Assembly: GCA_964536745.1 (NCBI GenBank)
Contig: CAZHYL010000003.1
Location: forward strand, 1,001 to 65,000
Source of the DNA: an uncultured Candidatus Saccharibacteria bacterium
GTDB taxonomy: Bacteria; Patescibacteriota; Doudnabacteria; UBA920
DNA: 64,000 nt
Reading direction: 5' to 3'
Shown: positions 7,639 through 44,801 of the stretch, piece by piece
How positions within the stretch are numbered: position 1 is the first letter of the stretch
Layout of the letters: each line of letters opens with the position of its first letter
Notes under the pieces: generated by a model
The model's input: the letters and a program-made list of their open reading frames with translations, nothing else
Databases searched by the model: none
What the model was told of the DNA's origin: nothing
Translations under genes and position numbers: made by a program

Positions 7639-9467
7639 CTGGGTTCCAGTCTATGGGTTATTCAAGCTATAACACAGCGATTAGCGAACTAGCTGCTTCA
7701 GAAGCAAATGTTTATGCCATAGATTCAACTGGTGCAGCGTTGCGTGATGCTAATCACTGGAGTTATGCTGGACTTAAGACAGTTACCTCAAGCATGGTCA
7801 CTGTAACCAAAAATGTATTGGGGTTAAATTACCCAGGTTTACCTACAAGTTTATCTGCGACTCCTAGTAGTTCTTCTGTGGCGCTTTCATGGACAGCTCC
7901 AGTAGCAAATGGTGGCTCGGCAATTACTGATTATGTTATCCAATATAAAACTAATGCCGCTTCAACGTGGTCCACATTTAACGATGGAACTTCTACTTCC
8001 ACATCTGCTACAGTAACTGGACTAAGCGGTGACACAGCATATAACTTTAGGGTAAAAGCTGTTAACTCAAATGGCGGTGGTAACTATACAACTGTGAATG
8101 CAACCACTACTGACGGTTCGGCTCCAACAATTTCATCAGTTACTGTTTCTGTTAATCCAAATAATACTCAAGCCACGATCTCTTGGACGACTGATGAATT
8201 GGCTTCTAGCTTGGTAGACTATGGAATTAGTTCATCCTATGGAAATTCTACTGTCGAATCTGATACTTCTCCTAGGGTCTTGAACCATTCAGTTACAATT
8301 TCATCATTATCACCATGTGCAATCTATAATTATCGGGTAAAGTCCACCGATGCGAATAGCAATTTAGCCACGGGTTCTAATGGACAATTCCAGACTGATG
8401 GTTGTACGTCAGAAGTTTTAGAATCTGGTTCGTTTTTTGTGGATGATTCTACAGGTATGAGTGTAGGTGCCTCTGGTACCCCAGGTGTTCGTTTGGGTGT
8501 TCCAGCAGGAGCTGCCGGGGTAGACGCAAGTTTTCAAGTTATGAAAATTGACTCTGACAGCGCGGTTGATGCCGTAGGGTTACCTTCCGGATTTTCTTTA
8601 GTAGGTGATCATACTTATGAGTTAAGAGCTTATGAAGATGTTGGCAGTGCAATTTCATCTTTTAATAGTCCGATTACTGTTGTGATTGAGTATGAAGACG
8701 CCGATGTCGCTGGTCTAAATGAATCTAATTTAGTTATTTACCATTACACTGGAGGTAATTGGACTTCTCTCGCTCCATGTACTGTTAACACCAGCGCTAA
8801 CACTGTAACCTGTTCTACCACCAGTTTCTCTTTGTTTGGTCTTATGGGTACTGCAAGCGCATCTGGTGGTTCTTCTGGCTCACAAACCAAACACCCAGTA
8901 GGCACAAACATTGTTACCGATGATGGAACAATTTACACACTTACAGCTGATGGCAAGCGTAGACCATACACTTCTGCTGGTGCGTTCTTAAGTTATGGTT
9001 TTAACTCTTTTGCTACCACAGTCAAAGCTTTGAAAGGGGACTTAGCCATCCCCGTAGGCTCATTCATTCCTCCTCGTGACGGCTCTATTACTTGTTCTGA
9101 CAGGGGAGAAGACAGAGGCACCTGCTATCTCATTACCGATGGTAAAAAAGCTGGCTTTACCTCTGCTACTGTATTTACATCCTTAGGGTTCTCCTTCCTA
9201 AATACTCAGTACGGTGATGTCTCCTTCATGGAATCAGCACCTAATATTTCCACCGCCCAGCAGGCTCATCATATTGGCACCCTTATTAACAACGAAGGCA
9301 CTCTTCAAATTATTGCCTCCCAAGCCTTAGTTGGTATTCCATCCATGTCCGTCTTAACCTCTTGGGGCTACAACCCTGCAACTGCTGTCTTAGCTAATAC
9401 TTATGACAAGCTCCTAGAACAAACCCAAGTGCTGACTACCAGACTAGCTGGAGTGCTAGATTTTTAA
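7635..9467 (+). CDS. C-terminal part (610 aa) of the same surface protein. It holds the rest of the SGNH esterase domain (block V 'DANHWS'), FN3 and PAP-N-like FN3 modules, a Cys-containing domain and three copies of the shared ~38-aa C-terminal repeat.
   Basis: Begins '…GFQSMGYSSYNTAISELAASEANVYAIDSTGAALRDANHWS' (SGNH block V D-x-x-H). Frame 0 is open back to 7614 and overlaps the end of the upstream ORF in another frame. The C-terminal repeats match those at 1140-1861 and in 41138-41821. Confidence 0.7.
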   Translation: MTGFQSMGYSSYNTAISELAASEANVYAIDSTGAALRDANHWSYAGLKTVTSSMVTVTKNVLGLNYPGLPTSLSATPSSSSVALSWTAPVANGGSAITDYVIQYKTNAASTWSTFNDGTSTSTSATVTGLSGDTAYNFRVKAVNSNGGGNYTTVNATTTDGSAPTISSVTVSVNPNNTQATISWTTDELASSLVDYGISSSYGNSTVESDTSPRVLNHSVTISSLSPCAIYNYRVKSTDANSNLATGSNGQFQTDGCTSEVLESGSFFVDDSTGMSVGASGTPGVRLGVPAGAAGVDASFQVMKIDSDSAVDAVGLPSGFSLVGDHTYELRAYEDVGSAISSFNSPITVVIEYEDADVAGLNESNLVIYHYTGGNWTSLAPCTVNTSANTVTCSTTSFSLFGLMGTASASGGSSGSQTKHPVGTNIVTDDGTIYTLTADGKRRPYTSAGAFLSYGFNSFATTVKALKGDLAIPVGSFIPPRDGSITCSDRGEDRGTCYLITDGKKAGFTSATVFTSLGFSFLNTQYGDVSFMESAPNISTAQQAHHIGTLINNEGTLQIIASQALVGIPSMSVLTSWGYNPATAVLANTYDKLLEQTQVLTTRLAGVLDF

Positions 9468-9487
9468 AATTACTTTGTTCAGATTTA

Positions 9488-9511
9488 ACCACTCAAGAAG
9501 AGTGGTTTTTT
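9488..9511 (+). terminator. Rho-independent terminator (ACCACTC-AAGAA-GAGTGGT-TTTTT).
   Basis: 7-bp stem plus T5 directly after the 9467 stop. Confidence 0.6.
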
Positions 9512-9512
9512 C

Positions 9513-9566
9513 TTGACAGGGGAGTTTGTTGTGCTATTCTAAATGTAACCCCCCATGGGGGGGTAA
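9513..9566 (+). promoter_or_regulatory. Sigma70-type promoter (TTGACA, 16-nt spacer, TATTCT). A C6-AT-G7 palindrome at 9549-9562 (CCCCCCATGGGGGG) follows between promoter and start codon and is a candidate CsoR/RcnR-family operator.
   Basis: -35 TTGACA at 9513-9518 and -10 TATTCT at 9535-9540. The G/C-tract inverted repeat flanked by TAA/TAAT resembles the RcnR/CsoR operator style (TACT-G6-N-AGTA type). Confidence 0.55.
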
Positions 9567-9844
9567 TGATAAATAATATGACAGAACAACAAAAGCAAAT
9601 AATCAAAAGAATTAAAACTGCCCAAGGTCACCTTGGTGCTGTAGCAGACATGGTGGCAAAGGATAATTATTGCATGGATATTATTAACCAGAACCATGCT
9701 GTTATCGAAGCCTTACGGAAAGTGAATAATCTTATCTTGGAGGGCTATTTGGGTGAGTGTGCTTTGGATGCTGTGAACCATAAAAGTGCAGCAAAGCGTA
9801 AAGCAGCAGTTCAGGAATTAGTAAAAATTTACAGTAAGAAATAA
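9566..9844 (+). CDS. CsoR/RcnR/FrmR-family (DUF156) metal- or thiol-sensing transcriptional repressor. The sensing residues are Cys36, Tyr61 and Cys65, i.e. the Cu(I)-ligand His is replaced by Tyr.
   Basis: 92-aa all-helical protein. The 'AQGHLGAVADMV…C…H/Y…C' layout matches the CsoR fold. Residues counted directly from the translation (C36 … Y61 … C65, with H44 also present). Confidence 0.6.
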   Translation: MINNMTEQQKQIIKRIKTAQGHLGAVADMVAKDNYCMDIINQNHAVIEALRKVNNLILEGYLGECALDAVNHKSAAKRKAAVQELVKIYSKK

Positions 9845-9845
9845 T

Positions 9846-10778
9846 ATGAACGAAGTATATAAAACAATCATTATTGGGTCTGGTCCATCAGGCCTTACCG
9901 CTGCCATTTATGCAGGCAGGGCAGAGCTTGCACCGTTAGTAATTGCTGGTCTCCAACCCGGAGGTCAGTTAACTATTACCACAGACGTAGAAAATTTTCC
10001 TGGATTTCCTGAAGGAATTCAAGGGCCAGAGTTAATGCAGAAAATGACCGAACAAGCCACGCGTTTTGGTGCCAAAATAGTTCAAGAAAATGTATCTAGT
10101 GTAGACTTTTCATCTAAGCCATATAAGGTAAAGACTGATAATAATGAGTACCACGCACAGAGTGTGATTATTGCTACTGGCGCAGAAGTTAAATGGCTAG
10201 GCTTAGAAAATGAAACTCGTCTTCGTGGTAGAGGAGTGACTGCTTGTGCGACTTGTGATGGATTCTTCTTTAAGAATTTAGATATCGTTGTAATAGGTGG
10301 TGGTGATAGCGCTATGGAAGAAGCTTTGTTTCTAACAAAGTTTGGGAAAAGTGTTACTATTGTTCACAGGCGAGATGAATTTAGAGCTTCGAAAATTATG
10401 TTAAAGCGCGCTCAGGACAATCCAAAAATCAAATTTATAACCGATGTAACTATCTTGGATATTTTAGGAGAGGATTCTTTCTCTGGCATTAAAATTAAAG
10501 ATAACAAAACCGGAGAAGAGCGAGAGATTCCCGCGCAGGGGTATTTTGTAGCCATTGGACACAGTCCAGCTGTGAAAATTTTTGCGGATGCAGGAGTAGA
10601 ACTGGATGAAAAAGGCTATATCGCTCAAAAAGAATTTACCCAAACTAATATTGAAGGAGTGTTTGTAGCAGGCGATGTTCACGACCATCGGTATCGTCAA
10701 GCTATATCTTCTGCAGGGGAAGGCTGTAAGGCGGCGCTTGATGCGGAAAAATATTTAACTGAATTAAGTTTAGAATAA
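9846..10778 (+). CDS. trxB: Thioredoxin reductase (NADPH, low-Mr type).
   Basis: FAD motif IIGSGPSGLTAAIYA, redox-active CATCDG, NADPH motif VVIGGGDSAMEEA. 310 aa. The start lies 2 nt after the csoR-like stop. Confidence 0.85.
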   Translation: MNEVYKTIIIGSGPSGLTAAIYAGRAELAPLVIAGLQPGGQLTITTDVENFPGFPEGIQGPELMQKMTEQATRFGAKIVQENVSSVDFSSKPYKVKTDNNEYHAQSVIIATGAEVKWLGLENETRLRGRGVTACATCDGFFFKNLDIVVIGGGDSAMEEALFLTKFGKSVTIVHRRDEFRASKIMLKRAQDNPKIKFITDVTILDILGEDSFSGIKIKDNKTGEEREIPAQGYFVAIGHSPAVKIFADAGVELDEKGYIAQKEFTQTNIEGVFVAGDVHDHRYRQAISSAGEGCKAALDAEKYLTELSLE

Positions 10779-10779
10779 T

Positions 10780-12009
10780 ATGAATAATCCATTTGAAAGT
10801 GCAAAAAAACAACTTCAAGCTGCTGCCGATGCAGCCAGTCTGGATTCAGATAAAATTCAGAGGTTAATGAACCCAGATCGTTATATCGAGGTTTCTATAC
10901 CTGTAAAAATGGACGATGGGTCTCAGAAGATTTATACAGGTTTTCGATCGCAGCATAACGACTCTCGTGGTCCTTATAAAGGCGGAATTCGATATCACCA
11001 AGATGTTAACTTAGACGAAGTTCGCGCTTTGAGTTTCTGGATGACTTTTAAGAACGCGGTAATAGATGTGCCTTTTGGTGGCGGTAAAGGCGGAATTATA
11101 GTGGATCCTAAGGGATTGTCGACTGGTGAGCTCGAGAGGCTCTCTAGGGGTTATATGAGACAAATGTGGCGTAATTTTGGGCCCTTGGTGGACGTTCCTG
11201 CTCCAGATGTTAATACAAATGGGGTGATTATGGGTTGGATGAGGAACGAGTATGAAAATTTAACTGGTAACTCGGCGCCTGGTGTGATTACGGGTAAATC
11301 CGTGGAGGATGGTGGTAGTGAAGGTCGTACAGAGGCTACAGGTTTTGGTGGTGGCTATGTACTTCGCGAAGCTCTTAGCGCTGGTTTGGTCACGAGTCCA
11401 GCAGCAGAAAAAAAGACGATTGCTATCCAAGGATTTGGTAATGTTGCAACGTATTTAGCAGAGTATGCAAAAGAGCATGGCTTTAAAGTTGTGGCTTTAT
11501 CGGATAGTAAAGGCGGAGTTTATAACGAAGCCGGTATAGATATTTCTGCAGCCGAACAGCACAAGAAAGAAACTAAATCCTTGAAAGGATTAGCGGGTGC
11601 CAAAGAGATTACAAATGAAGAACTGCTGGAGTTAGATGTAGATGTATTAGTGCCTGCAGCATTAGAAAATGTTTTAACTGCAGATAATGCTGAAAAAATT
11701 AAAGCTAAATTTATTTTAGAAATGGCTAATGGGCCAACTACACCAGAAGCAGACGAAATTTTTGAAAAGAATGGTGTTGTGGTCGTGCCAGATATCTTGG
11801 CAAATAGTGGAGGAGTTTGCGTAAGTTATTTTGAGTGGTATCAGAACATGCATAATGAGAAGTGGAACAAAGATGAGGTGTTAAAAAAACTTGATGAGCA
11901 TATAGTGTCTGCGTTCAATGCAGTAAGGGAGGCTCAAAATAAATACCAATGCTCAATGAGAACAGCAGCATATATAATAGCTGCTCAAAGAATTCTGGAA
12001 AAGATGTAA
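10780..12009 (+). CDS. gdhA: Glutamate dehydrogenase (Glu/Leu/Phe/Val dehydrogenase family).
   Basis: Contains KGGIRYH…FGGGKGG and GFGNVA Rossmann motifs. 409 aa. Translationally coupled to trxB. Confidence 0.8.
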   Translation: MNNPFESAKKQLQAAADAASLDSDKIQRLMNPDRYIEVSIPVKMDDGSQKIYTGFRSQHNDSRGPYKGGIRYHQDVNLDEVRALSFWMTFKNAVIDVPFGGGKGGIIVDPKGLSTGELERLSRGYMRQMWRNFGPLVDVPAPDVNTNGVIMGWMRNEYENLTGNSAPGVITGKSVEDGGSEGRTEATGFGGGYVLREALSAGLVTSPAAEKKTIAIQGFGNVATYLAEYAKEHGFKVVALSDSKGGVYNEAGIDISAAEQHKKETKSLKGLAGAKEITNEELLELDVDVLVPAALENVLTADNAEKIKAKFILEMANGPTTPEADEIFEKNGVVVVPDILANSGGVCVSYFEWYQNMHNEKWNKDEVLKKLDEHIVSAFNAVREAQNKYQCSMRTAAYIIAAQRILEKM

Positions 12010-12018
12010 AGATAAAAA

Positions 12019-12041
12019 GCCAGTCAACATTGACTGGCTTT
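12019..12041. terminator. Bidirectional hairpin terminator (GCCAGTCAA…TTGACTGGC + TTT) between convergent gdhA and the 12024 gene.
   Basis: 9-bp perfect inverted repeat followed by T-run. Confidence 0.5.
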
Positions 12042-14002: not shown

Positions 14003-14917
14003 ATGTACGATTGCATTATCATTGGAGCTGGACCTGCAGGGATGACTGCAGCGATTTATACAGCTCGTAAAAAATTAAAAACTCTTGTGCTAGCTAAAGA
14101 AGCAGGGGGCCAAATGGTGTGGAGTAGTGATGTAGAAAACTATACGGGATTTTCTATGATTAGTGGCGCAGATTTAACCGCTAAGTTTCAAGACCACTTA
14201 AATACTTTGAAAGAAGATTTAGAAGTTAAGATCGGTGTCGAGGTGGTTAATGTTGAAAAAAATATTACTAGTTTTACTATTCAGGATAGTCAGGGTGGAG
14301 AATATTATTCAAAGACAGTTATCATTGCCGCGGGGAAAGTTCCTAGGCATTTGGGAATCGTAGGGGAGAAGGAATTTTACGGCCATGGGGTTTCCACATG
14401 TGCTACTTGTGACGCTCCTCTGTATAAAGGTAAAAAAGTAGCTGTGGTTGGTGGTGGGAATTCCGCGATGGATGCTGTTGTTGCTTTATCAAAGCTGGCA
14501 AGCCAAATTACTTTGGTTAATATTAATCATAGCTTGGCTGGTGATGAAATTTTAAAACAAAAAGTTTTGAGCTTGACCAACGTTAAAATTTTGAATAACT
14601 CAAAGGCAGTAGAAATTGTCGGCAACAAATCTGTGGAGAAGCTACGTTATCAGCCGTATGCCCAAGATGAACAAGAAATAAATGTGGATGGTGTATTTAT
14701 AGAAATAGGTTATGAGCCAGCATCGGGGTTCGATTCACTTGTTGATAGAAATCAGCACCATGAAATTAAAGTTGGCAAAAATCTGCAAACAAGTGTAGAC
14801 GGACTTTTTGCAGCTGGGGATATAAACGACCTTGGGAGTGAGCAAATTATCATTGCAGCCGGTGAAGGAGCGCAGGCAGCTTTATCGGTAAGTGAGTACT
14901 TGAACAAACAAAAATAG
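14003..14917 (+). CDS. Second thioredoxin-reductase-like FAD/NAD(P) disulfide oxidoreductase (paralog of trxB).
   Basis: IIGAGPAGMTAAIYTA…CATCDAP…VVGGGNSAMDAV. 304 aa. Confidence 0.7.
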   Translation: MYDCIIIGAGPAGMTAAIYTARKKLKTLVLAKEAGGQMVWSSDVENYTGFSMISGADLTAKFQDHLNTLKEDLEVKIGVEVVNVEKNITSFTIQDSQGGEYYSKTVIIAAGKVPRHLGIVGEKEFYGHGVSTCATCDAPLYKGKKVAVVGGGNSAMDAVVALSKLASQITLVNINHSLAGDEILKQKVLSLTNVKILNNSKAVEIVGNKSVEKLRYQPYAQDEQEINVDGVFIEIGYEPASGFDSLVDRNQHHEIKVGKNLQTSVDGLFAAGDINDLGSEQIIIAAGEGAQAALSVSEYLNKQK

Positions 14918-18075: not shown

Positions 18076-19161
18076 TTAGACATTAAATAGGAAGTGAACT
18101 ACATCACCGTCTTGAACGACGTACTCTTTTCCTTCGGTTCGTAGCCATCCTTTTGCTCTAGCATTTGCGTATGAGCCTGCTTCTAATAGTTTATCCCACG
18201 CGATTGTTTCAGCTCTAATAAATCCGTGTTCAAAATCGGTGTGAATAACACCTGCTGCTTGTGGAGCTTTGGTTCCGCTTGGGCAAGTCCAAGCCTTGCT
18301 TTCTTTTGGCCCTGCGGTAATAAATGTAATTAGCCCTAAAGTTTTATATGCTGCTGTTATAATTCGGTCGAGGCCGCTTTCAGTTAATCCTAAATCCTTT
18401 AAATAATCATCACGATCGCTATCTTCTAATTCAGCAAGCTCACTTTCTAATTTGGCATCAACGATTAATGCATTTTCTGGAATTGGATTTGGAACATTTT
18501 GGTATTGGTGAGTGTTAAGGTCGTAAGTTGAATTAAACGCATACAAAAATGGTTTTGTGGTAAGTAGTTGTACATCTTTTGAAGCATCTTTTTCTTCATC
18601 GTTTAAAATTACTGTGTTAGCCATTTGCCCATCCTCTAAAGCTGCTTTGTATTTTTCTAACACACCCATTTTAATTTTCGCAATTCTATCACCAGACTTA
18701 ACTAACTTCGCATTTGATTCAATTCTTTTCTCCACATTTTGCAAATCTGCTAACTGAAGTTCTATAGCAATCGTTTCCATATCTCGTTTGGCATCTACAT
18801 TTCCGTTTACGTGAATAATGTCGTCGTTGTTAAATACACGAGTCACTTCCAAAATTGCATCAACTTCACGAATATGCGAAAGAAATTGATTACCTAAGCC
18901 TTCGCCTTTATGAGCGCCAGAAACAAGTCCGGCAATATCTACAAATTCTATAGAAGTCGGCACAATTTTTTCACTTTTTTCTTGCTCTGCTAACTTTGCA
19001 AGACGATCGTCGGGTACAGCAACAACACCAACATTGGGGTCAATGGTGGCAAAGGGGTAGTTCGCAGCTTCAACCTGCGATTTAGTAATGGCGTTAAATA
19101 ATGTTGACTTGCCAACATTTGGCAAACCAACAATTCCGATGGTCTGTTTTGAACCCGACAT
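18076..19161 (-). CDS. ychF: Ribosome-binding ATPase YchF (Obg-family GTPase with C-terminal TGS domain).
   Basis: P-loop 'IGIVGLPNVGKSTLFNA'. C-terminal '…VVQDGDVVHFLFNV' matches the TGS domain. 361 aa. Confidence 0.85.
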   Translation of the reverse strand: MSGSKQTIGIVGLPNVGKSTLFNAITKSQVEAANYPFATIDPNVGVVAVPDDRLAKLAEQEKSEKIVPTSIEFVDIAGLVSGAHKGEGLGNQFLSHIREVDAILEVTRVFNNDDIIHVNGNVDAKRDMETIAIELQLADLQNVEKRIESNAKLVKSGDRIAKIKMGVLEKYKAALEDGQMANTVILNDEEKDASKDVQLLTTKPFLYAFNSTYDLNTHQYQNVPNPIPENALIVDAKLESELAELEDSDRDDYLKDLGLTESGLDRIITAAYKTLGLITFITAGPKESKAWTCPSGTKAPQAAGVIHTDFEHGFIRAETIAWDKLLEAGSYANARAKGWLRTEGKEYVVQDGDVVHFLFNV

Positions 19162-20743
19162 AATTTGAATTAGTTAATGGTAAATATCCAGTGACTTGCA
19201 GCTGGTTCTTATCGCTTACAACCTTTTCGACAGTATTGAGTATTATTGCCCTTTTAGGTTCAAATTTCAAATCCTGTAAGGTCTTTTTAGCTTTCTCGGC
19301 AAATGCTTTAATCTCACGTTGGCTGGGTGCTTCCAAGAGCGTTTGGTTCGCTTGGTCGGTAGCGTTTGTGACTTGTGCTTCAAGTTTAGTGATTTTATCT
19401 CGAAGCGGGACAGTATATTCTTTAAGTTGCTCTAAAGTAAATGCTCCAGCTCCGTAGCCTTTATTATATCGTTCAATCTGTCCGTTTAATTTACTGATTT
19501 CCTTTTTGGTAGCTTCGACATCGACCAAAGTAGATTTTGCTTTGGTTTGTCGGTTCTTGAGCCAACGTTCAACCTGTTCGGCTAATAGCTTGGGGGAGCT
19601 CATTAAAGCAGAAACCTTTTTCCATACCAGTTCATCAGCAACTCTTGCGTTGATACCTCGTTCCTCACATTTGGGCGGTAAGGGAAAACTCAATGTTCTA
19701 TCGGTGCAGCGGTAATATAGGTTCGGTTTATTATAATAGCCTTCACCCATTCGCTTTCTACCGCATACGCAATCAATTTTCCCAGACAGTAAATACTCAT
19801 TTTTCTTGTTGCGTTTACACAGAGCGAAATTCGCTTTTAATTGTTGTCCAGCTTTTTCAAAAACTTTTGGTTCAATGATTGCGGGAATGGGTATTGTTAT
19901 CCATTCTTCGGTAGGTCGTAATCTACGGCTGGTTTTTTTCTGCTTTTTATACTTTTCGTGTTTGAGTGGTCTTTCTGGAACAACAGCGTAAGAAGCTCCG
20001 TAGTGCGCTTCACCAATATAACCCTTGTGTCGCAGCATAGTGCTTAAGGTGCTGGTGCTCCATACACCTCTTTTGCTGTTGCGTGGCCTAATACCAAGCT
20101 GTTGCAACTTCCTGACTATGGCTCGCAGCGTCATTCCGTCATCGGCTACCCAAGAGAATATCATTTTTACAACTCGTGCTTCCTCTGGATGGACTTCATA
20201 ATAACCGTGTTTCTTATCCTGCTTCGGAATGTAGTTGTAACCGTAAAGAGGATGTGTGGTAAGAATATGCCCTTCTTTTACCTTTCGAAGTTTGCCAAGC
20301 CTAAATCTTTCGGCGATTTTTGCACGCTCATATTCAGCAAACAACCCTCTAACGCCGTGCAGGATTTTATCTTCGCTGTTTTTAGGAGCAGGGACAGTAA
20401 CGAATATAACTTCAACGCCAGCTTCTCGTAACTCATCCATAACCAATTCTTGATAGGAATAACGGCGAGCCAAGCGGTCAGGGTCGTAGATAAGCACGGC
20501 TTCCCAAACTCTGTCTTTGCTTTTCGCATCCAATCGAAGTCTATCCAGCGCTGGGCGTTCCAAAATATCGCCGCTCCAGTCATCGTCCTTATACTCCTGA
20601 ATTATCTGCCAGTTATTCTTTTCAGCCAGCTCGTTGAAAGTCATTATTTGATTTTTTATAGTCCGTTCTTCTTCGTCAGGATTTTCAGATACACGAGCGT
20701 ATGTAGCGATTAGCTTAAATTGGTTGTCAGTTGCAAAGTTCAT
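19094..20743 (-). CDS. Large serine recombinase (resolvase/invertase catalytic domain, recombinase domain, zinc ribbon and coiled-coil). Its last 68 nt overlap the 5' end of ychF.
   Basis: N-terminal 'LIATYARVSENPDEEERTIKNQ…' carries the catalytic Ser motif. 'DRLARR' is present, as is a C-terminal Cys cluster (CVCGRK…YYRCTDR). 549 aa. Confidence 0.8.
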   Translation of the reverse strand: MNFATDNQFKLIATYARVSENPDEEERTIKNQIMTFNELAEKNNWQIIQEYKDDDWSGDILERPALDRLRLDAKSKDRVWEAVLIYDPDRLARRYSYQELVMDELREAGVEVIFVTVPAPKNSEDKILHGVRGLFAEYERAKIAERFRLGKLRKVKEGHILTTHPLYGYNYIPKQDKKHGYYEVHPEEARVVKMIFSWVADDGMTLRAIVRKLQQLGIRPRNSKRGVWSTSTLSTMLRHKGYIGEAHYGASYAVVPERPLKHEKYKKQKKTSRRLRPTEEWITIPIPAIIEPKVFEKAGQQLKANFALCKRNKKNEYLLSGKIDCVCGRKRMGEGYYNKPNLYYRCTDRTLSFPLPPKCEERGINARVADELVWKKVSALMSSPKLLAEQVERWLKNRQTKAKSTLVDVEATKKEISKLNGQIERYNKGYGAGAFTLEQLKEYTVPLRDKITKLEAQVTNATDQANQTLLEAPSQREIKAFAEKAKKTLQDLKFEPKRAIILNTVEKVVSDKNQLQVTGYLPLTNSNYVGFKTDHRNCWFAKCWQVNII

Positions 20744-20919
20744 TTGATTTTATGTTTTTCTAAAAACTTATTGACTTCGGCTTTGGGAATGCGGAGCAGG
20801 GAAGTCTTACCATCACCAAGCTTATAACCTTTGAGCGAGCCACTTTTAAGCCAGCGCAATATGGTGCGCTTATGAACTCTTAATTCTTTTGCTACTTCTT
20901 CCAATGTGAGAAATTCCAT
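20740..20919 (-). CDS. Excisionase/MerR-like HTH DNA-binding protein (59 aa), not in the ORF track. Its stop overlaps the recombinase start (ATGA).
   Basis: Manual translation of the minus strand gives MEFLTLEEVAKELRVHKRTILRWLKSGSLKGYKLGDGKTSLLRIPKAEVNKFLEKHKIK, an HTH_17/excisionase-type motif ('…TI.RW…G.L…K.G…'). Confidence 0.6.
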   Translation of the reverse strand: MEFLTLEEVAKELRVHKRTILRWLKSGSLKGYKLGDGKTSLLRIPKAEVNKFLEKHKIK

Positions 20920-21064
20920 AAGTTTATTATAGTCTTAATTGTCATCAGTTGTCAAATCGCCATATTTCAATAACGTTTCTTCAAATAAAAGGTCAAAGGC
21001 ACTTTCAATCAACCCATTGGTATCTTCTACGGGTTGGTATCGCACTGAAGGCTGACTTCGTTTT

Positions 21065-22231
21065 TTAGTCTTGGTTGAAGTCATACCTTTCGAATTTTTC
21101 TAATGCTGATTGAATTTCACTGATAGCCAGCGATGGTGGCGTTCCTCGTAAGGTAGTTGCTGCAACCTTTATTTTAGGTGATAGACGTGTCCAGCTTTTG
21201 CTTGTCCAATTTTTCTCAATTTTATCTCTGGTTTTCCTAACCCCGTATTGGTTGATGAGTGTATAGAGACCAAGACTGGCGAGTGCAGCATTAAGTGAGT
21301 GCGCTTGCTTCTTCTTTTTGGAAGTTAATCCAGCAATCATTGCATCAAACACTTCTTCTGTTGGTCGTTCCAGTTTGAAAGCGAGTTGGCTGGCAGGTGA
21401 CTTGATTATTTCTGACCACTTGGTAAGTAGGGTTTTTTGCCAGAGTTCTTTGTTGAATAGCTCCTCAAAAGCAACTTCCTTAACTTTTTCGCCTTTTATT
21501 TTGGACAGGAACGCAGTCAGGCTTTGCTGTTTCGCCAGCCTGATTTCAAAACGTAGAATTTCAGGTTTCTGTTCATCGTTCCAAATATCTGTAAAAAGTC
21601 GTTCCAGATAGAGCTTGTCTTTATCGATGGCCTTCGCTTTTGGTGTCTGAATATCTTTGAGCTTGTCGTAAAAAATGATATTGGCCGAAGAAGCGTAAAA
21701 ATATAAGGCTTGGCCGTTATTGCCGTAGTGCCTCACATTCACGTCTTTTGTTTTGCCAATGTCTGCTTTGTAAAGCGTTGAAATAGCATCCTGCACGGTC
21801 ATTGGAGCAGGTAGCACGATATTCTTACCAAAGTGTGCTTTAACAACTATCGCTTTACGAAGTAATGCCTTGAAAATTTTAATTCCCATTTGGGAAAGGC
21901 GAGCTTGGAGTTCTTCTACAACCCTGTCAAAGTCTGTGTCGTTGTATTCTTGAACACTATTGCCGTTCAAGAGTTTGGGAACAGAAAATTCAATGTGCAG
22001 GTCGTATCTAACCTTAAAATCCTCAAAACGCTGATATACGGTCAGTCTTGGTAAGTAAATACCAGCCTGCTTATCTGCGAACGTGGCGTTCTGGGTGAAC
22101 TTTTGGAACTTATGGCGGCCGTAGTTAAAATCAGTAGTTTTGTCGTTGATAATTAACGCAGGAGTAAAAAGGTTGGGGTTTCCAACCATAAAGTTCGGAT
22201 ATGTAATTCTGATAGCAACTGTATCCAGCAT
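21065..22231 (-). CDS. Putative replication-initiator/relaxase-like protein (Rep_trans or phage CRI-like). Tentative.
   Basis: 388-aa protein. The position directly upstream of xis-recombinase and loose resemblance to rolling-circle Rep proteins (…RHYGNNGQALYFY…, …ILRFEIRL…) support the call. Not verified. Confidence 0.3.
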   Translation of the reverse strand: MLDTVAIRITYPNFMVGNPNLFTPALIINDKTTDFNYGRHKFQKFTQNATFADKQAGIYLPRLTVYQRFEDFKVRYDLHIEFSVPKLLNGNSVQEYNDTDFDRVVEELQARLSQMGIKIFKALLRKAIVVKAHFGKNIVLPAPMTVQDAISTLYKADIGKTKDVNVRHYGNNGQALYFYASSANIIFYDKLKDIQTPKAKAIDKDKLYLERLFTDIWNDEQKPEILRFEIRLAKQQSLTAFLSKIKGEKVKEVAFEELFNKELWQKTLLTKWSEIIKSPASQLAFKLERPTEEVFDAMIAGLTSKKKKQAHSLNAALASLGLYTLINQYGVRKTRDKIEKNWTSKSWTRLSPKIKVAATTLRGTPPSLAISEIQSALEKFERYDFNQD

Positions 22232-22261
22232 AACGCCTGCGTTTGTCTGCCTTTCGGCTGT

Positions 22262-22549
22262 TTATTTCTGTCTCGGTGTCCGATTTTTGTTGTCCCGAAA
22301 TTTCGGGGAATACTCCAAGACGTTGTGTGGATACTGGTCTGCAATCATTTGCGAAACCAATATCCAGCCTCGACCTTTACAGTTATCACAAGGCAAGTAA
22401 TCAGTGCCGACCATAGTAAAATCGTCGAACCTGTCGCTGTGCCAAATGATATTTTGGGGAACTTCAATTTTGCCAGTGCATTCGCACAGTAAGCACTTGT
22501 ATTTAACCGACGGCACTGAACAGTGATGGCATTGTTTTGATTGGTTCAT
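22262..22549 (-). CDS. Cys-rich zinc-finger protein (95 aa), hypothetical.
   Basis: CHHC…CLLCEC…CDNC cluster. Confidence 0.45.
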   Translation of the reverse strand: MNQSKQCHHCSVPSVKYKCLLCECTGKIEVPQNIIWHSDRFDDFTMVGTDYLPCDNCKGRGWILVSQMIADQYPHNVLEYSPKFRDNKNRTPRQK

Positions 22550-22558
22550 AAAATTTCC

Positions 22559-22891
22559 TTATTCGCTGTATAATCTGTTTTTAAGCATTTTGAGGTTATC
22601 GAAAAACGACCTCGCTTTAACTTCGAGGCGGTCAGCCCAATAGTCGTCTACGACCCGTTCTATCCCTGCTTGTCGCAGGAAAGCAAACTGGACTTTGCGT
22701 GGGTTGGTTTTATCAAGCAAGGCAAGCTGAAAGCCAGCCGAAACCAGTGCTGCGGCTGCACCTAAATCGAACGTGTATAAGTAATTGTGGTAATCTTCGG
22801 CAGAACTTTGGGTGTCTGCCTGACCCTTTGGTAATTTTCTGGTCATTGATTTTTTGTTAATGGTAATATTTTGGCGAAAGAAAAAAGCCAA
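22559..22891 (-). CDS. Hypothetical protein (110 aa).
   Basis: ORF in the element operon. No motif recognised. Confidence 0.4.
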   Translation of the reverse strand: MAFFFRQNITINKKSMTRKLPKGQADTQSSAEDYHNYLYTFDLGAAAALVSAGFQLALLDKTNPRKVQFAFLRQAGIERVVDDYWADRLEVKARSFFDNLKMLKNRLYSE

Positions 22892-22994
22892 AGCGTATTG
22901 TGCTTTGACTTTATCCTTTTATTATTCAGTTATGGACGGAAAGAATGTGCGATTATTGTGGTTGTATTATGGGATGTATGTGCTTCAGTTGTGC

Positions 22995-23450
22995 TTAAAC
23001 TATCAGCTTGTATCCGTGTTGTTTGATATTTTCTATGCAGTCTCGATTTTTGGCTTGTCCTTTCGGCAAAATACCCAAAATTTCTTTGATGTTTCTAATG
23101 ATAAAACCAAGCTTGCGTTTAGCATCTTTTGAGGGGTTTTCTCCAAGTAAATCGGTATAAGTCGCTAAATACTCATCGCTGCTCATTAACGTGTGCAGGA
23201 TTGCAAATTCTTGGGTCTGTGGGTTAATGTTGGCTTTCACTTCGTTGAGTTGCACCGAGCCTGCGCTTTCGTTAAGTGTTAAAAGCCCGTGCTTTAACTG
23301 AACACTTAAAACCTTATTTTTTGGCGTTGGCAAAGCCTCAATTTTCGGCTGTGGTTGCACAGGGGGTGCACTGCCCAAAACTCTTTCTTTGTATTGATTA
23401 TACCGATCTTCGAAATCTTGCGGGAATTGGATTGTGAGAATACTGCTCAT
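22995..23450 (-). CDS. Hypothetical protein (151 aa).
   Basis: ORF in the element operon. The next upstream gene ends 4 nt away. Confidence 0.4.
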   Translation of the reverse strand: MSSILTIQFPQDFEDRYNQYKERVLGSAPPVQPQPKIEALPTPKNKVLSVQLKHGLLTLNESAGSVQLNEVKANINPQTQEFAILHTLMSSDEYLATYTDLLGENPSKDAKRKLGFIIRNIKEILGILPKGQAKNRDCIENIKQHGYKLIV

Positions 23451-23454
23451 ACAA

Positions 23455-24081
23455 TTACCTTGCTGCTCCTATAATTCTGAATTTTGAAATAAGACCTGCT
23501 TGTTGAAGCAAATTTAGTATGTTTTCGAGCTCATACCAATCGGTAATGCCGCATTCTCTCATCCAAGAATGATATTTTTGGGTTGATATTTTAGTCTCGC
23601 CCGTGCTTGGGGTCAGAGCCCATTCTTCTTTGAGCTTTTCAAGTATGAATAACTTTTTTTGGTCTGCTGCGGACAGGTTGGTCTTTTTTGGTTCAGACGG
23701 CTTATTGGCCGACTGACTTAATACTTGAACTTGCTTGGTAAGAAACTTTATTTGGTCGGCATTATACTCTTTGGTAAAAATACTTTCGTATAGTGCGTAG
23801 ACTTCCTCAAATCTCGGAAGTATAGGCTCAACCTTGTAAGCATTGGGTCTGGTATGCACTCCATTCAGCTGTTGTATGCTTCTAAAAGTGGCCAATAAGG
23901 ATGATTGGTATTCTAATGCTTTAAGGCTGCCCGTTTTGGCAATCATCCTAACAGCTCGTTCTCTGACATCAGCGTTAGTATCAATAATAATCCACTGGTC
24001 ATTAGGTGTGGCGAGCTGTTCTTGCTGGATTTCGCATAAGATTTGCCAAGCAGTTTTGTGTAATTCTTCAATAGGGGACAT
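23455..24081 (-). CDS. Hypothetical protein (208 aa), first gene of the element's minus-strand operon.
   Basis: ORF. No motif recognised. Confidence 0.4.
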   Translation of the reverse strand: MSPIEELHKTAWQILCEIQQEQLATPNDQWIIIDTNADVRERAVRMIAKTGSLKALEYQSSLLATFRSIQQLNGVHTRPNAYKVEPILPRFEEVYALYESIFTKEYNADQIKFLTKQVQVLSQSANKPSEPKKTNLSAADQKKLFILEKLKEEWALTPSTGETKISTQKYHSWMRECGITDWYELENILNLLQQAGLISKFRIIGAAR

Positions 24082-36162: not shown

Positions 36163-38073
36163 GTGTTTTAAAATCTGTTCGGCTTTTGCTTTGCCAACTA
36201 GTTTTTCTAACTCACGAATCGGTGTCTGTTTAATATTTTGAACAGTACCGATTTTTTGTTTTAACAATTTTTTAGTCTTGGGGCCAATTCCAGGAATGCT
36301 ATCAAGAGCAGATTTTACTGCTTGTTTACTGCGTAGGGATTTATGAAAAGTTATTCCAAAACGGTGAGCTTCGTCGCGAAGTCTTTGTAGCATTTGCAGT
36401 ACTGGATTGTCATGAGGTAATACAATCGGGTTAGGATTATTTGGTAAAAAGATTTCTTCGATTCGCTTGGCTAAACCAATAACAGGAATTTTCAGCTTTG
36501 CTTTCCTTAGTACTTCTACTGCAATACTAAGTTGACCTTTACCACCATCAATAACGATTAGGTCGGGGATAGGCCAATATTCCCCTCCTTTAAAGGAGGG
36601 GTTAGGGGAGGTTTTTACCCCCTCCATCTCCCCCTTAGAAGGGGGAGAGATCCGAGCCAAACGGCGTTGGAGCATTTCTCTCATCATGGCAAAGTCGTCC
36701 GGAGTGTTTTTACTGGTAATTTTGAATTTTCGGTATTCCGATTTCGCGGCTTGGCCATCTTTTATAACCACCATGCTGCCGACAGGGTTTGTTCCTTGGG
36801 TGTTACTAATGTCATAACCTTCAATTCTTCTTGGGGTATGGGGAAGTTTGAGGAGAGTTTTTAGCTCTTCAAGTATTTCTTTTAATAAATCTAAATTAGC
36901 GGCTTGAGAACTCTGCCACTTTCTTAAAAATTCTTCGGCATTGGTTTTACCCATGCCAATTAATTTCAGTTTATTTCCTCGACTAGGAACACTAATCTTA
37001 ATTGTGTTTTTGCTTCGAGACTTAAGTAATAGCTGAATCAACTGTATTTCTTCTGGTGCTTCTTCTATGAAGATTTCTTTTGGCAAGTCTGTAGTTTGGG
37101 AGTAATAATTTTGAAGGAAACTATTAAGAACGGATTTAATTCTGAATTCTGGTGCAAAACCTAAAATATTATCAAAGATAAAAGTTTCGTTATCTTTTAG
37201 TTTGCCCTCTCGGACTTTAAATAGATTTACCCCCGCGGATAATTCATCCGTGAAAACAGAAATAAAATCCCAATCTACTTTTTGAGCAAACATAGTGAGT
37301 TGCTTTTCGTCTAAAATTTCAATCGCATTTAATTGATCTCTAAGTCTGGCGGCTAGCTCGAATCGTTTTTTCTTTGCTGCTTTTTTCATTTCTGCGTGAA
37401 GCTCTTTTTTAATTGGCGCGGTCTTGCCAGAAAGAAAAAGAGTGATACGGCCTAGTTGTTCTTCATATTCTTTAAGAGTAATTTGGCCAATACAAACACC
37501 AGGACAGCGATGTAAGAAATAGTAGAAACAAGGTCGTTTGCCAATTTCCTTGTTTGCGCAGAAAGGAAAGATGCGGCGAGTTAAATCTAAAGTTTGACGA
37601 ATTTTTTTTGCTGATGAATATGGTCCGAAGAATTTACTTCCCCTCCTTTTTAAGGAGGGGCTAGGGGAGGTTTTAACCCCACCCACCCTCCCCTTAGAAA
37701 GGGGAGGGGTACTTTCAACTTTTCGAGCATAAGTAATCTGAGGAATTTCTGAAGAGTAATCGATTTGAATGAACGCATAATTTTTATCATCACGGAGCAT
37801 TATGTTGTACGGTGGCATATGCTCTTTGATGAGCGTGTTTTCCAAGAAGAGACTTTCAAGCTCGGTTCTTACTACTATGTATTCAAAATCTACAGCCTCG
37901 GCCATAAGGAAGGGGAGCTGGGCACGGTTGTCGGACTTTCCGAAGTACTGACTAATTCTTGATCGTAAATTTTTGGCTTTGCCTACATATAAAACAACCC
38001 CTTCTTTATTAAGGAATTTGTATACACCGGGTTTTCGGGGGACATCTTTTAATTTAGTTCTTAGCTTGTCCAT
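36157..38073 (-). CDS. uvrC: Excinuclease ABC subunit C carrying two in-frame inserted palindromic elements.
   Basis: GIY-YIG N-terminus (PGVYKFLNKEGVVLYVGKAKNLRSRISQYF), 'FFGPY', 'PDLIVIDGGKGQL' and a C-terminal HhH. Two segments, …SPPSKGEMEGVKTSPNPSFKGGEY… and …TPPLSKGRVGGVKTSPSPSLKRRGS…, are not part of the UvrC consensus. Confidence 0.85.
   Translation of the reverse strand: MDKLRTKLKDVPRKPGVYKFLNKEGVVLYVGKAKNLRSRISQYFGKSDNRAQLPFLMAEAVDFEYIVVRTELESLFLENTLIKEHMPPYNIMLRDDKNYAFIQIDYSSEIPQITYARKVESTPPLSKGRVGGVKTSPSPSLKRRGSKFFGPYSSAKKIRQTLDLTRRIFPFCANKEIGKRPCFYYFLHRCPGVCIGQITLKEYEEQLGRITLFLSGKTAPIKKELHAEMKKAAKKKRFELAARLRDQLNAIEILDEKQLTMFAQKVDWDFISVFTDELSAGVNLFKVREGKLKDNETFIFDNILGFAPEFRIKSVLNSFLQNYYSQTTDLPKEIFIEEAPEEIQLIQLLLKSRSKNTIKISVPSRGNKLKLIGMGKTNAEEFLRKWQSSQAANLDLLKEILEELKTLLKLPHTPRRIEGYDISNTQGTNPVGSMVVIKDGQAAKSEYRKFKITSKNTPDDFAMMREMLQRRLARISPPSKGEMEGVKTSPNPSFKGGEYWPIPDLIVIDGGKGQLSIAVEVLRKAKLKIPVIGLAKRIEEIFLPNNPNPIVLPHDNPVLQMLQRLRDEAHRFGITFHKSLRSKQAVKSALDSIPGIGPKTKKLLKQKIGTVQNIKQTPIRELEKLVGKAKAEQILKHL
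36577..36648. repeat. GC-rich palindromic element copy A (about 70 nt) inserted in-frame in uvrC. It encodes SPPSKGEMEGVKTSPNPSFKGGEY.
   Basis: 'cccctcctttaaaggaggggttaggggaggtttttaccccctccatctcccccttagaagggggaga' is made of nested inverted repeats (CCCCTCC-TTTAAA-GGAGGGG; TCTCCCCCTT-CTAA-GGGGGAGA). About 60% GC against an about 38% GC background. Confidence 0.75.
37636..37710. repeat. GC-rich palindromic element copy B inserted in-frame in uvrC. It encodes TPPLSKGRVGGVKTSPSPSLKRRGS. It is about 85% identical to copy A, with the same orientation and frame.
   Basis: 'cccctcctttttaaggaggggctaggggaggttttaaccccacccaccctccccttagaaaggggagggg' aligns to copy A with few substitutions. Confidence 0.75.
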
Positions 38074-43530: not shown

Positions 43531-44250
43531 TTATTCGGTGGGGATAATTTTACTTTCTAGGCTTCCAAAATCGTAGAATTCCAAAAGTTTGGATTGAATC
43601 ACTAAATCATATTGGAAATACATAGTAATCGCTAGTGCGATAATTATTAAGCCAAAGATTTGTTGGATTCTATTTGTGTAAGGGGCAATTGCTCTAACTT
43701 TGTTAGAAATTAATTGTCCACCATAAGCAATTACCAGCATTGGAATACCTGCACCTAGTGCATAGGCAGTAAGGAGTATTCCGGATTCAGCTGAACTGCC
43801 TTGTGTTGCGATTAAAGTTAAGATTGATCCTAACACTGGCCCTGCACATGGTGTCCAAATTAAGCCAAGCATAATGCCCAAGATAAACCCACTTAAATTT
43901 CCTGTTCCTGCTTTTGAAGATAAGCTAGTGGCTTTGGTGGTGAAGGTACTTAAGTATGCTGTAATTTTTTCGAAGGGCGTTGGCCAAAGTGTAAACAGTC
44001 CAAAAATAGCTAGGGCGACTACTGCAATATCACGAACTAGGTCTGGTGATATGTTTAGCGAGATGGTTATCCAAGACAAGGTTAGACCTACAATCGTAAA
44101 CATCACAATAAAACCTAGCGCAATGAATAAGGGTCTAGTTTTAGAACTGGTTCCAACCGAACTACCAAGTAAGATTGGGAGAAGGGGGAGTATGCAAGGA
44201 GCGCCAACGGTTAGTACCCCTGCTAATATCGCAAAAAGAATTTCTAACAT
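43531..44250 (-). CDS. ccdA: CcdA/DsbD-family transmembrane thiol-disulfide electron transporter.
   Basis: 'TVGAPCILPLLPILLG' and a second 'TPCAGPVLG' are the two conserved Cys motifs of CcdA. About 6 TM. Confidence 0.7.
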   Translation of the reverse strand: MLEILFAILAGVLTVGAPCILPLLPILLGSSVGTSSKTRPLFIALGFIVMFTIVGLTLSWITISLNISPDLVRDIAVVALAIFGLFTLWPTPFEKITAYLSTFTTKATSLSSKAGTGNLSGFILGIMLGLIWTPCAGPVLGSILTLIATQGSSAESGILLTAYALGAGIPMLVIAYGGQLISNKVRAIAPYTNRIQQIFGLIIIALAITMYFQYDLVIQSKLLEFYDFGSLESKIIPTE

Positions 44251-44801
44251 TATTTTAAATTCTTTTTAAGTGCGTCAATGTCTCCGCCGCTCCATTTAGA
44301 AATCATATTTCCTTCGCTGTCAATTTGTACAAAAGTATGTTGATAGGTTATACCATATTTCTTTTTTAAATCAGAGCTGTTGTCGTAATCAGTTTTGATT
44401 ACACTCACACCTTGTGGTATTTGGTCTATGTTATTTAAGAATGCTGTGTTGGCAGTTTTACAGGTAGGGCACCATGCTGCGTGGAAGAAAAGCACCACTG
44501 TTCTGCCTGCTTTTTGTTGTTCTGCTACAAGTTCAGGAGAATAATCTAAGTATGCCCCTTTTCCTGCCCATAAATCTGAACTAGATTGTGCATCTTCTTT
44601 ACTCATCATCTTTTCATCAGCAGTCATTTTTTCAACAGGAATTTCCTGAGGTTTTGCTGGGGCTTTTGTCTGTCTAGAAGAAGCTTGTTGACTACTATTA
44701 TTAATCAGATAGACCCCAATGCTTATGATTACAGCTGTCATGATAATTAAAGGGAGCAAGATTTTTTTGTTCATTTTCGTTAGTTTAATTCTTGTAATCA
44801 T
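44250..44801 (-). CDS. Membrane-anchored thioredoxin-like protein (WCPTC active site).
   Basis: 'VVLFFHAAWCPTCKTANTAF' is a canonical thioredoxin CxxC. N-terminal TM segment. Confidence 0.6.
   Translation of the reverse strand: MITRIKLTKMNKKILLPLIIMTAVIISIGVYLINNSSQQASSRQTKAPAKPQEIPVEKMTADEKMMSKEDAQSSSDLWAGKGAYLDYSPELVAEQQKAGRTVVLFFHAAWCPTCKTANTAFLNNIDQIPQGVSVIKTDYDNSSDLKKKYGITYQHTFVQIDSEGNMISKWSGGDIDALKKNLK

Follow-up and report, generated by a model that had tools for sequence, protein, structure and literature searches.

The DNA under study, referred to here as the window, is a stretch of 64,000 nucleotides (nt) from contig CAZHYL010000003.1 of an uncultured Candidatus Saccharibacteria bacterium (GTDB lineage Doudnabacteria; UBA920), and we investigated a three-gene operon at positions 9566 to 12009, headed by a predicted repressor of the CsoR family. 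The three open reading frames (ORFs) lie on the plus strand and encode the regulator (9566-9844, 92 amino acids, PF02583), a thioredoxin-disulfide reductase (TrxR; trxB, 9846-10778, 310 amino acids) and a glutamate dehydrogenase of the hexameric type (GDH; gdh, 10780-12009, 409 amino acids). Their junctions consist of 1-base gaps with the sequence TAA-T-ATG, and we infer that the operon genes are translationally coupled. Ahead of the unit, the surface-protein gene upstream ends in an intrinsic terminator (9487-9507, plus strand), made of a stem of 8 base pairs (bp), 4 of them G-C, followed by TTTTTCTT, which is predicted to shield the operon against read-through from that gene. A bidirectional intrinsic terminator at 12016-12041, with an 11-bp stem and T-runs on both strands, closes the unit.

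The TrxR scored 406 bits against the TIGR01292 equivalog model, whose cutoff is 343, and carries a CATC center at residues 134-137 together with the segment VHRRDEFRA, in which HRRDEFR corresponds to HRRxxxR, a motif that we take, by reference to E. coli TrxR, to be the NADPH motif. The GDH possesses both ELFV domains (PF00208 and PF02812) and the catalytic-lysine motif GGGKGG within PFGGGKGGI, and its nearest solved relatives are 2tmg, 1b26, 1gtm and 1euz. Neither a subtype nor a cofactor could be assigned to it, as the nearest structures (2tmg, 1gtm, 1euz) do not decide the cofactor and the protein stayed below the NCBIfam equivalog cutoffs (513 against 750). A second TrxR-like flavoprotein is encoded by trxB2 (14003-14917, plus strand); it retains a CATC center, shows VNINHSLAGD where the HRRxxxR motif would stand, remained below the TrxR equivalog cutoff (298 versus 343) and has 4zn0 as its best solved match. 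The reductant of this protein may differ from that of TrxR. Two minus-strand genes separate gdh from trxB2 in the window, and the two are linked by synteny only.

A sigma-70-type promoter was located at 9513-9540 on the plus strand, with TTGACA at 9513-9518, a 16-nt spacer and an extended -10 element, TGcTATTCT, at 9532-9540, giving 10 of 12 consensus matches in addition to the TG of the extended -10. Eight bases after the end of the -10 element at 9540, we observed a perfect 7-3-7 inverted repeat, ACCCCCC-ATG-GGGGGGT (9548-9564), a predicted operator that would span the transcript from about +1 to +17. The first-pass annotation of this DNA had reported a C6-AT-G7 palindrome at 9549-9562. The sequence was read correctly (C6 at 9549-9554, AT at 9555-9556, G7 at 9557-9563), whereas the end coordinate was not, since the G tract reaches 9563; the parse in agreement with the orthologues is ACCCCCC (9548-9554), ATG and GGGGGGT (9558-9564). 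Type-2 CsoR operators are defined by two G/C tracts separated by a spacer of 2-4 nt and bordered by A/T-rich inverted flanks (PMC3902906), and by sequence the palindrome is a candidate site of this type. A CCCCC-N1-6-GGGGG pattern is expected 0.03 times per shuffled window, and no further operator was found in the window within 3 mismatches of ACCCCCC-N1-6-GGGGGGT. The sole other C5-N1-6-G5 match, CCCCC...CCCCCTTAGAAGGGGG at 36630 (36618-36645), was judged to be a chance occurrence and discarded because it has a 6-nt spacer, lacks the A/T flanks and lies inside a uvrC-like ORF (36157-38073, minus strand).

The regulator matched the CsoR/RcnR family PF02583 (DUF156) over residues 9-89 with 69 bits (E = 4.8e-19, cutoff 22.8). 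Its AlphaFold monomer model consists of three helices (residues 7-31, 36-71 and 75-90; pLDDT 88), and the top 20 PDB matches of the model are all CsoR-family proteins, with the Cu(I)-CsoRs ranking first and 2hh7 as the best (template modeling score 0.70/0.75). The protein contains only two cysteines, Cys36 and Cys65. When it was aligned by phmmer with MtCsoR 2hh7, GtCsoR 4m1p, 6ahx, SlCsoR 4adz and InrS 5fmn, Cys36 fell on the X-position Cys and Cys65 on the Z position, and Tyr61 stood opposite the Y-position His in all five structures. The fingerprint is accordingly read as x-C-Y-C, as the first-pass annotation had proposed, and the conserved His that it had named as a refuting result at position 61 did not appear on alignment. 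The residue numbers hang on the chosen start, as a second ATG at 9578, at whose equivalent most orthologues begin, would give a protein of 88 amino acids; the C-x24-Y-x3-C spacing, also given previously, is independent of this choice and was confirmed. The second-shell residues of Cu(I) sensors, Tyr35 and Glu84 (Glu81 in MtCsoR), are both retained. In S. lividans CsoR, DNA is contacted by the Arg of an RLxR motif, a Gln of helix 2 and basic residues of helix 3 (PMC3902906), whose counterparts here are Arg15, Gln42 and Arg78.

A search of 5.8 billion proteins returned 135 hits at E <= 0.001, and the best 120 of the 135 cluster representatives (59-93% identical) were aligned with the query to give a clade of 121 sequences. 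Cys36 and Cys65 occur in all of them, Tyr35 in 120 and Glu84 in 118, while position 61 is occupied by Tyr in 113 and by His in 6. Among the putative DNA contacts, Arg15 and Gln42 are invariant and Arg78 is present in 120/121; Asn41, His44, Gly60 and Gly63 are clade-specific and invariant or almost so. The fingerprints of other subfamilies were not recognized. RcnR and InrS have His at W and at Y, with His (RcnR) or Cys (InrS) at Z; here no His is conserved among the variable first 8 residues, Tyr occupies the Y position, and the RcnR model returned 17 bits against a cutoff of 138. For FrmR, which has Pro2 at W and His at Y, the window N-terminus reads MINNMTE or MTE, Pro is found at position 2 in just 16/121 clade sequences, and the model returned 25.8 bits against a cutoff of 133. 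In a library of 1.84 billion representatives, the clade amounts to two full-length entries (118 and 100 bits), the next score being 70 bits. A Tyr at the Y position also turns up sporadically in other, uncharacterized CsoR-family lineages lacking Tyr35 and Glu84.

The first-pass annotation had likened the Tyr replacement to that of thiol/persulfide-sensing CstR-like paralogs, and as regards descent this needs correcting. Bit scores were 42.8 for MtCsoR versus 26.5 for CstR (phmmer), 133 of the 150 nearest representatives display C-H-C with Tyr35 and Glu84, i.e., the Cu(I)-sensor pattern, and characterized CstRs carry an Asn (PMC11672702) where the window protein has Tyr61. Judged from these comparisons, the clade is by descent a branch of the Cu(I)-type CsoRs and not of CstR.

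The conservation of the locus was examined by scanning one genome per GTDB species, which gave 38 loci (L001-L038), all from metagenome-assembled genomes of Patescibacteria labeled Saccharibacteria, Doudnabacteria or Patescibacteria group. The gene following the regulator is trxB in 37/37 informative loci, and gdh lies downstream in 32 of 35, immediately in 20 of these and behind a riboflavin kinase gene in the other 12, thus bearing out the regulator-trxB-gdh arrangement; three informative loci have no gdh. The operon genes are co-directional in all loci. In these 12 loci, the riboflavin kinase gene (PF01687) is usually accompanied by an EamA transporter gene and the two separate trxB from gdh by 1.4-1.8 kb. 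In many relatives trxB2 directly follows gdh in the same orientation, and the neighbors comprise overall trxB, gdh, trxB2, riboflavin kinase, the EamA transporter and an HtrA-like protease. Neither copA nor copZ was found, whether in the operon of the window or across the 38 neighborhoods, and the latter likewise contained no sulfur-detoxification genes (rhodanese, sulfide:quinone reductase, persulfide dioxygenase, CoA-persulfide reductase).

The string of stand-alone riboflavin kinase and EamA/DMT transporter (PF00892) genes is exemplified by L011 (2828-4155) and recurs in L008, L012-L014, L019, L020, L026, L030, L034, L035 and L037; it is also seen in some loci with no gdh, and suggests that genes for supplying flavin sit together with those of the two TrxR-type flavoproteins. 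In L030 a homologue of the 23S-rRNA-intervening-sequence protein (PF05635) interrupts the otherwise conserved string at 6662-7030, between the riboflavin kinase and EamA genes, and an ORF of equal length (122 amino acids) occupies the equivalent position in L024.

The palindrome was found to be conserved along with the genes. Exactly one C5+-N-G5+ palindrome is present in 5-10 kb in 36 of the 38 loci, always 5' of the regulator, whereas L020 and L024 hold degenerate copies. It therefore behaves as the operator that had been predicted from the window, and its absence from orthologous promoters, anticipated as a possible refutation, was not observed. The consensus is (T)A(G/T)ACCCCCC-NNN-GGGGGGTA(T), with fixed tracts and A/T flanks around a spacer of variable sequence. 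Promoter geometry was evaluated on 39 promoters (the 38 loci and the window, the two degenerate copies included), and the C tract begins 35-41 nt past the -35 element in 38 of them, the exception being L016, where the palindrome lies between -35 and -10. The distance from operator to start codon ranges instead from 22 to 339 nt, and this combination of a fixed promoter distance with a variable start-codon distance fits a repressor site and not an RNA element. The long leaders of L008, L034, L035 and L038, in which the operator is 210-339 nt from the start, are of low complexity and contain no credible ORF.

A second palindrome, TTGACA-NN-TGTCAA, is perfect in 19/38 loci (L008 4623-4636, L034 4721-4734, L035 2836-2849 and 16 others). 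It includes the -35 element of the regulator promoter in 18 of the 19, and in L002 it is found some 315 nt 5' of the operator. A TATACT-like -10 element is also present 17 nt away on the opposite strand, which gives these loci the appearance of divergent promoter pairs whose -35 boxes overlap. The gene transcribed in the opposite direction encodes a small membrane protein of about 90 amino acids with no Pfam match.

Further members of the regulon were sought by scanning metagenome contigs for AGACCCCCCNNNGGGGGGTA, which gave 79 stretches. Five are clade loci with regulator and trxB, about 10 adjoin other CsoR-like genes, and the remainder belong to G+C-rich contigs with no recognizable CsoR gene and are probably chance matches; no second class of target gene emerged from these 79 stretches. 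On three low-G+C contigs (L110 5628-8736, L043 1711-2020 and L070 648-940), ACCCCCC-N3-GGGGGGT adjoins genes for C-H-C CsoRs that are 41-44% identical, and in L110, which serves as outgroup, the C-H-C CsoR gene is in operon with that of a 724-residue P-type ATPase with HMA domain, thus representing a CsoR-CopA locus. The occurrence of the same motif at other CsoR genes, together with the retained DNA-contact residues, indicates that the clade kept the ancestral operator while the genes behind it changed. Should a pair of the L110 type share a genome with the trxB regulator, the identical operators would permit cross-talk.

The orthologues are divided by residue 61 into two forms, 27/38 carrying GYLGEC and 11/38 GHLG[AVIS]C, with perfect covariation across the 38 loci between Tyr61 and Glu64 (27) and between His61 and Ala, Val, Ile or Ser at position 64 (11). 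Both forms share the same operator and the same trxB neighbor. A neighbor-joining tree of the regulators places the His forms at the base and the Tyr forms as derived, although it is based on 80 residues, carries no support values and is indicative only. Since the His forms have the trxB regulon too, the regulon predates the His-to-Tyr change, which cannot have created it. The replacement had previously been taken as the sign of a functional switch, an interpretation contradicted by the 11 orthologues with His; together with Glu64, it is better described as a later remodeling of the site.

From these data we propose that the regulator acts on the thioredoxin system as a repressor with a dithiol switch and also controls its own expression, a reading to which we assign a probability of roughly 0.55. 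The most secure part is that the regulator very probably occupies the operator, which covers +1, and represses the three-gene transcript to which its own gene belongs. In the proposed mechanism, the reduced (dithiol) tetramer would bind the palindrome at 9548-9564, overlapping the transcription start, and keep its own gene as well as trxB and gdh from being transcribed. Thiol-reactive stress, be it peroxide, disulfide or sulfane-sulfur species, among which the present data cannot decide, would then attack Cys36, which would cross-link to Cys65 of the partner subunit and cause the release of the repressor. Release would raise the level of TrxR and of a dehydrogenase able to regenerate a reduced nicotinamide cofactor, and the induced thioredoxin system could finally re-reduce the repressor, closing a homeostatic loop. 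Such a feedback of thioredoxin on the repressor is plausible, while the role of GDH as supplier of reduced cofactor is speculative. Tyr61 and Glu64, standing in place of the Cu(I)-ligand His, would probably have no part in metal binding and serve to adjust the reactivity of the cysteines.

An inducing signal consisting of thiol chemistry at Cys36 and Cys65' is considered likely for several reasons: the His through which Cu(I) is linked to the release of DNA (PMC8643695) is absent from the window protein, there are no invariant reactive groups other than the two cysteines, the genes under control make up the very system that reduces disulfides, the neighborhood contains no genes for copper handling or sulfide detoxification, and dithiol switches are established in this fold for CstR (PMC8643695) and for TTHA1953 of Thermus thermophilus (PMC10318464). 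A number of observations weigh against the dithiol-switch repressor. The inducer was derived solely from the regulated genes and the residues of the site; 11/38 orthologues keep the full Cu(I) set (C-H-C with Tyr35 and Glu84), which would make them chemically capable of sensing Cu(I), and the nearest relatives of the clade are Cu sensors. No cytoplasmic thioredoxin gene was found by a CxxC motif scan of the operon and the 64-kb window, and the cofactor preference of GDH is not assignable from sequence. Finally, efp, rpsR and ssb next door are syntenic too, indicating that gene order at the locus is conserved more widely, and the linkage of gdh and trxB2 could therefore reflect in part an inherited gene order instead of co-regulation.

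This last point leads to the alternative that the regulator governs only itself and trxB, the linkage of gdh, trxB2 and riboflavin kinase reflecting gene order in a small genome with no meaning for NADPH supply. Besides the syntenic housekeeping flanks, the three informative loci with no gdh and the 12 loci in which 1.4-1.8 kb of other genes intervene between trxB and gdh speak in its favor. We regard it nevertheless as unlikely, as the gaps in the window measure 1 nt, the first terminator is encountered only at 12016, the genes are co-directional in all loci and TrxR bears the NADPH motif HRRxxxR.

A sensor specific for persulfides or reactive sulfur, i.e., a functional analogue of CstR with TrxR acting as persulfide reductase system, would represent a sub-case of the thiol switch. 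The window protein shares with the CstRs of S. aureus, E. faecalis and S. pneumoniae (7mq1-3) the x-C-x-C site, with two conserved Cys and no His, and the operator type (S. mitis ATATACCCTTATGGGGTATAT); by analogy, an intersubunit Cys-Cys cross-link (di-, tri- or tetrasulfide) freeing the DNA would be expected in the clade as well, and C-Y-C sites are also found in some uncharacterized lineages of the family. However, the similarity to CstR is low (26.5 bits, about 20-25% identity), the clade keeps Tyr35 and Glu84, and the Asn wedge present at the Y position in the characterized (Firmicutes) CstRs (PMC11672702) is replaced by Tyr61 in the window protein. Moreover, the clade loci lack the sulfurtransferase and sulfide-detoxification neighborhood of CstR, including the genes for rhodanese, sulfide:quinone reductase, persulfide dioxygenase and CoA-persulfide reductase that define it (PMC8643695), and sulfur specificity is thus held to be quite improbable.

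Strong doubts also apply to the proposal that the regulator is still a sensor of Cu(I) or another soft metal, which would release DNA upon metal binding at Cys36/Cys65 and let TrxR and GDH repair metal-caused thiol damage. The Cu(I)-CsoRs (2hh7 of M. tuberculosis, 4m1p of G. thermodenitrificans, 4adz of S. lividans; cluster 1/23 of the sequence similarity network in PMC8643695) are the best sequence and fold matches to the clade, which nests among C-H-C proteins and has in common with them the Cys36/Cys65 spacing, the second-shell residues Tyr35/Glu81(84) and a type-2 operator at the promoter with A/T-flanked C and G tracts, the same that occurs at the CsoR-CopA locus. Autoregulation, here predicted, is a further resemblance, and His61 persists in 11/38 orthologues. 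In contrast, most clade members, 113/121 and the window protein among them, have Tyr (with Glu64) at the allosterically essential His position, and in CstR the response to Cu(I) disappears once that His is lost (PMC8643695). The G/C tracts of the clade are longer (6+6, with 13 bp between the flanking AC/GT, versus TAC-X9-GTA), trxB-gdh takes the place of copZA with neither copA nor copZ in 38 loci, and the existence of one regulon for the His and Tyr forms argues for a His-independent signal.

Lastly, a palindrome acting mainly as an RNA element, i.e., a 5' hairpin stabilizing the mRNA or masking the start region, can hardly be upheld: the repeat is transcribed, being 3' of the -10 element, can fold as a 7-bp G-C hairpin (-13.8 kcal/mol) and has its G tract 2-7 nt from a candidate start codon in the window, L003 and L004, but the fold is no better than that of shuffled sequences (z = -1.54), the distance is fixed to the promoter and not to the start codon, the L016 copy would escape transcription, tracts and flanks are conserved as sequence with no compensatory change, and the motif is a known type of protein operator (PMC3902906).

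A precedent for the dithiol-switch repressor is TTHA1953, the regulator of the Sox pathway in T. thermophilus, a non-metal CsoR-family repressor with two Cys, whose regulon includes the thioredoxin-like gene soxW and in which a disulfide between the two Cys abolishes DNA binding (PMC10318464). It differs in its operator, TACNNTACNNNNGTANNGTA, which is not of the G/C-tract type, in its sulfur-oxidation regulon and in its lineage. Thiol-switch control of trxB is known from members of other families, such as Spx in Firmicutes, sigmaR-RsrA in Streptomyces and OxyR in Proteobacteria, where oxidation of regulator Cys induces trxB/trxA and the thioredoxin system resets the sensor. Those regulators have unrelated folds and are activators or an anti-sigma factor, whereas the protein proposed here is a repressor with a CsoR fold that would block transcription sterically at +1.

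The first-pass annotation had considered this gene arrangement undescribed, and we found no published description of it; full-text literature searches on CsoR with trxB, Patescibacteria, Saccharibacteria or Candidate Phyla Radiation (CPR) gave nothing relevant. CsoR-family regulators are known to respond to Cu(I), Ni/Co, formaldehyde or persulfides as inducers. The main paper on the CsoR similarity network does not mention thioredoxin (PMC8643695), and according to a 2024 review no H2O2-specific sensor of the family has been characterized, which limits insight into oxidant specificity (PMC11672702). All the parts of the system are of known kinds, namely the CsoR fold, the type-2 operator, trxB and gdh; what is new is their combination, a CsoR clade dedicated to a trxB operon and bearing a C-Y(E)-C site that arose from C-H-C. 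With its conserved trxB regulon, the clade is a direct candidate to fill the oxidant-sensor gap, and its natural His and Tyr/Glu variants, sharing one operator and one regulon, offer a ready comparison of how the site tunes reactivity.

As a tentative and broader scenario, in which we place less confidence, the clade could be an oxidant or disulfide-stress sensor of the CsoR family descended from a Cu(I) sensor that captured the trxB operon while keeping its operator, and subsequently replaced His61 with Tyr and residue 64 with Glu. It would then function as a minimal one-protein homeostat, reset by the induced TrxR/thioredoxin and with GDH feeding reducing power. TrxR, GDH, trxB2 and, in many species, the riboflavin kinase and transporter suggest a compact redox-maintenance module. 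The Patescibacteria (CPR) have very small genomes and almost no characterized regulators. The circuit would rank among the few readable ones in this group, and hints at the way in which these epibionts deal with oxygen or host-derived oxidants.

Other features were noticed elsewhere in the window. Upstream of the operon, at 218-9467 on the plus strand, three ORFs of very large size (547, 1364 and 610 amino acids), all in the same direction, contain repeated units of about 90 residues with the motif GGSAITxYxV and presumably encode surface proteins, the last of them ending at the terminator just 5' of the operon. On the minus strand, at 19094-24081, a 549-residue ORF, judged by its N-terminus alone, resembles a large serine recombinase, and several unannotated ORFs on the same strand come after it; this region adjoins a GTPase-like gene (18076-19161) and may be an integrated mobile element. 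As to thioredoxins, the CxxC scan of the window returned only a membrane-anchored, thioredoxin-like WCPTC protein (PF00085), whose gene follows that of a DsbD/CcdA-type membrane protein (PF02683) at 43531-44801 on the minus strand, and the two look like an extracytoplasmic thiol-reducing pair, which would draw on the cytoplasmic thioredoxin system.

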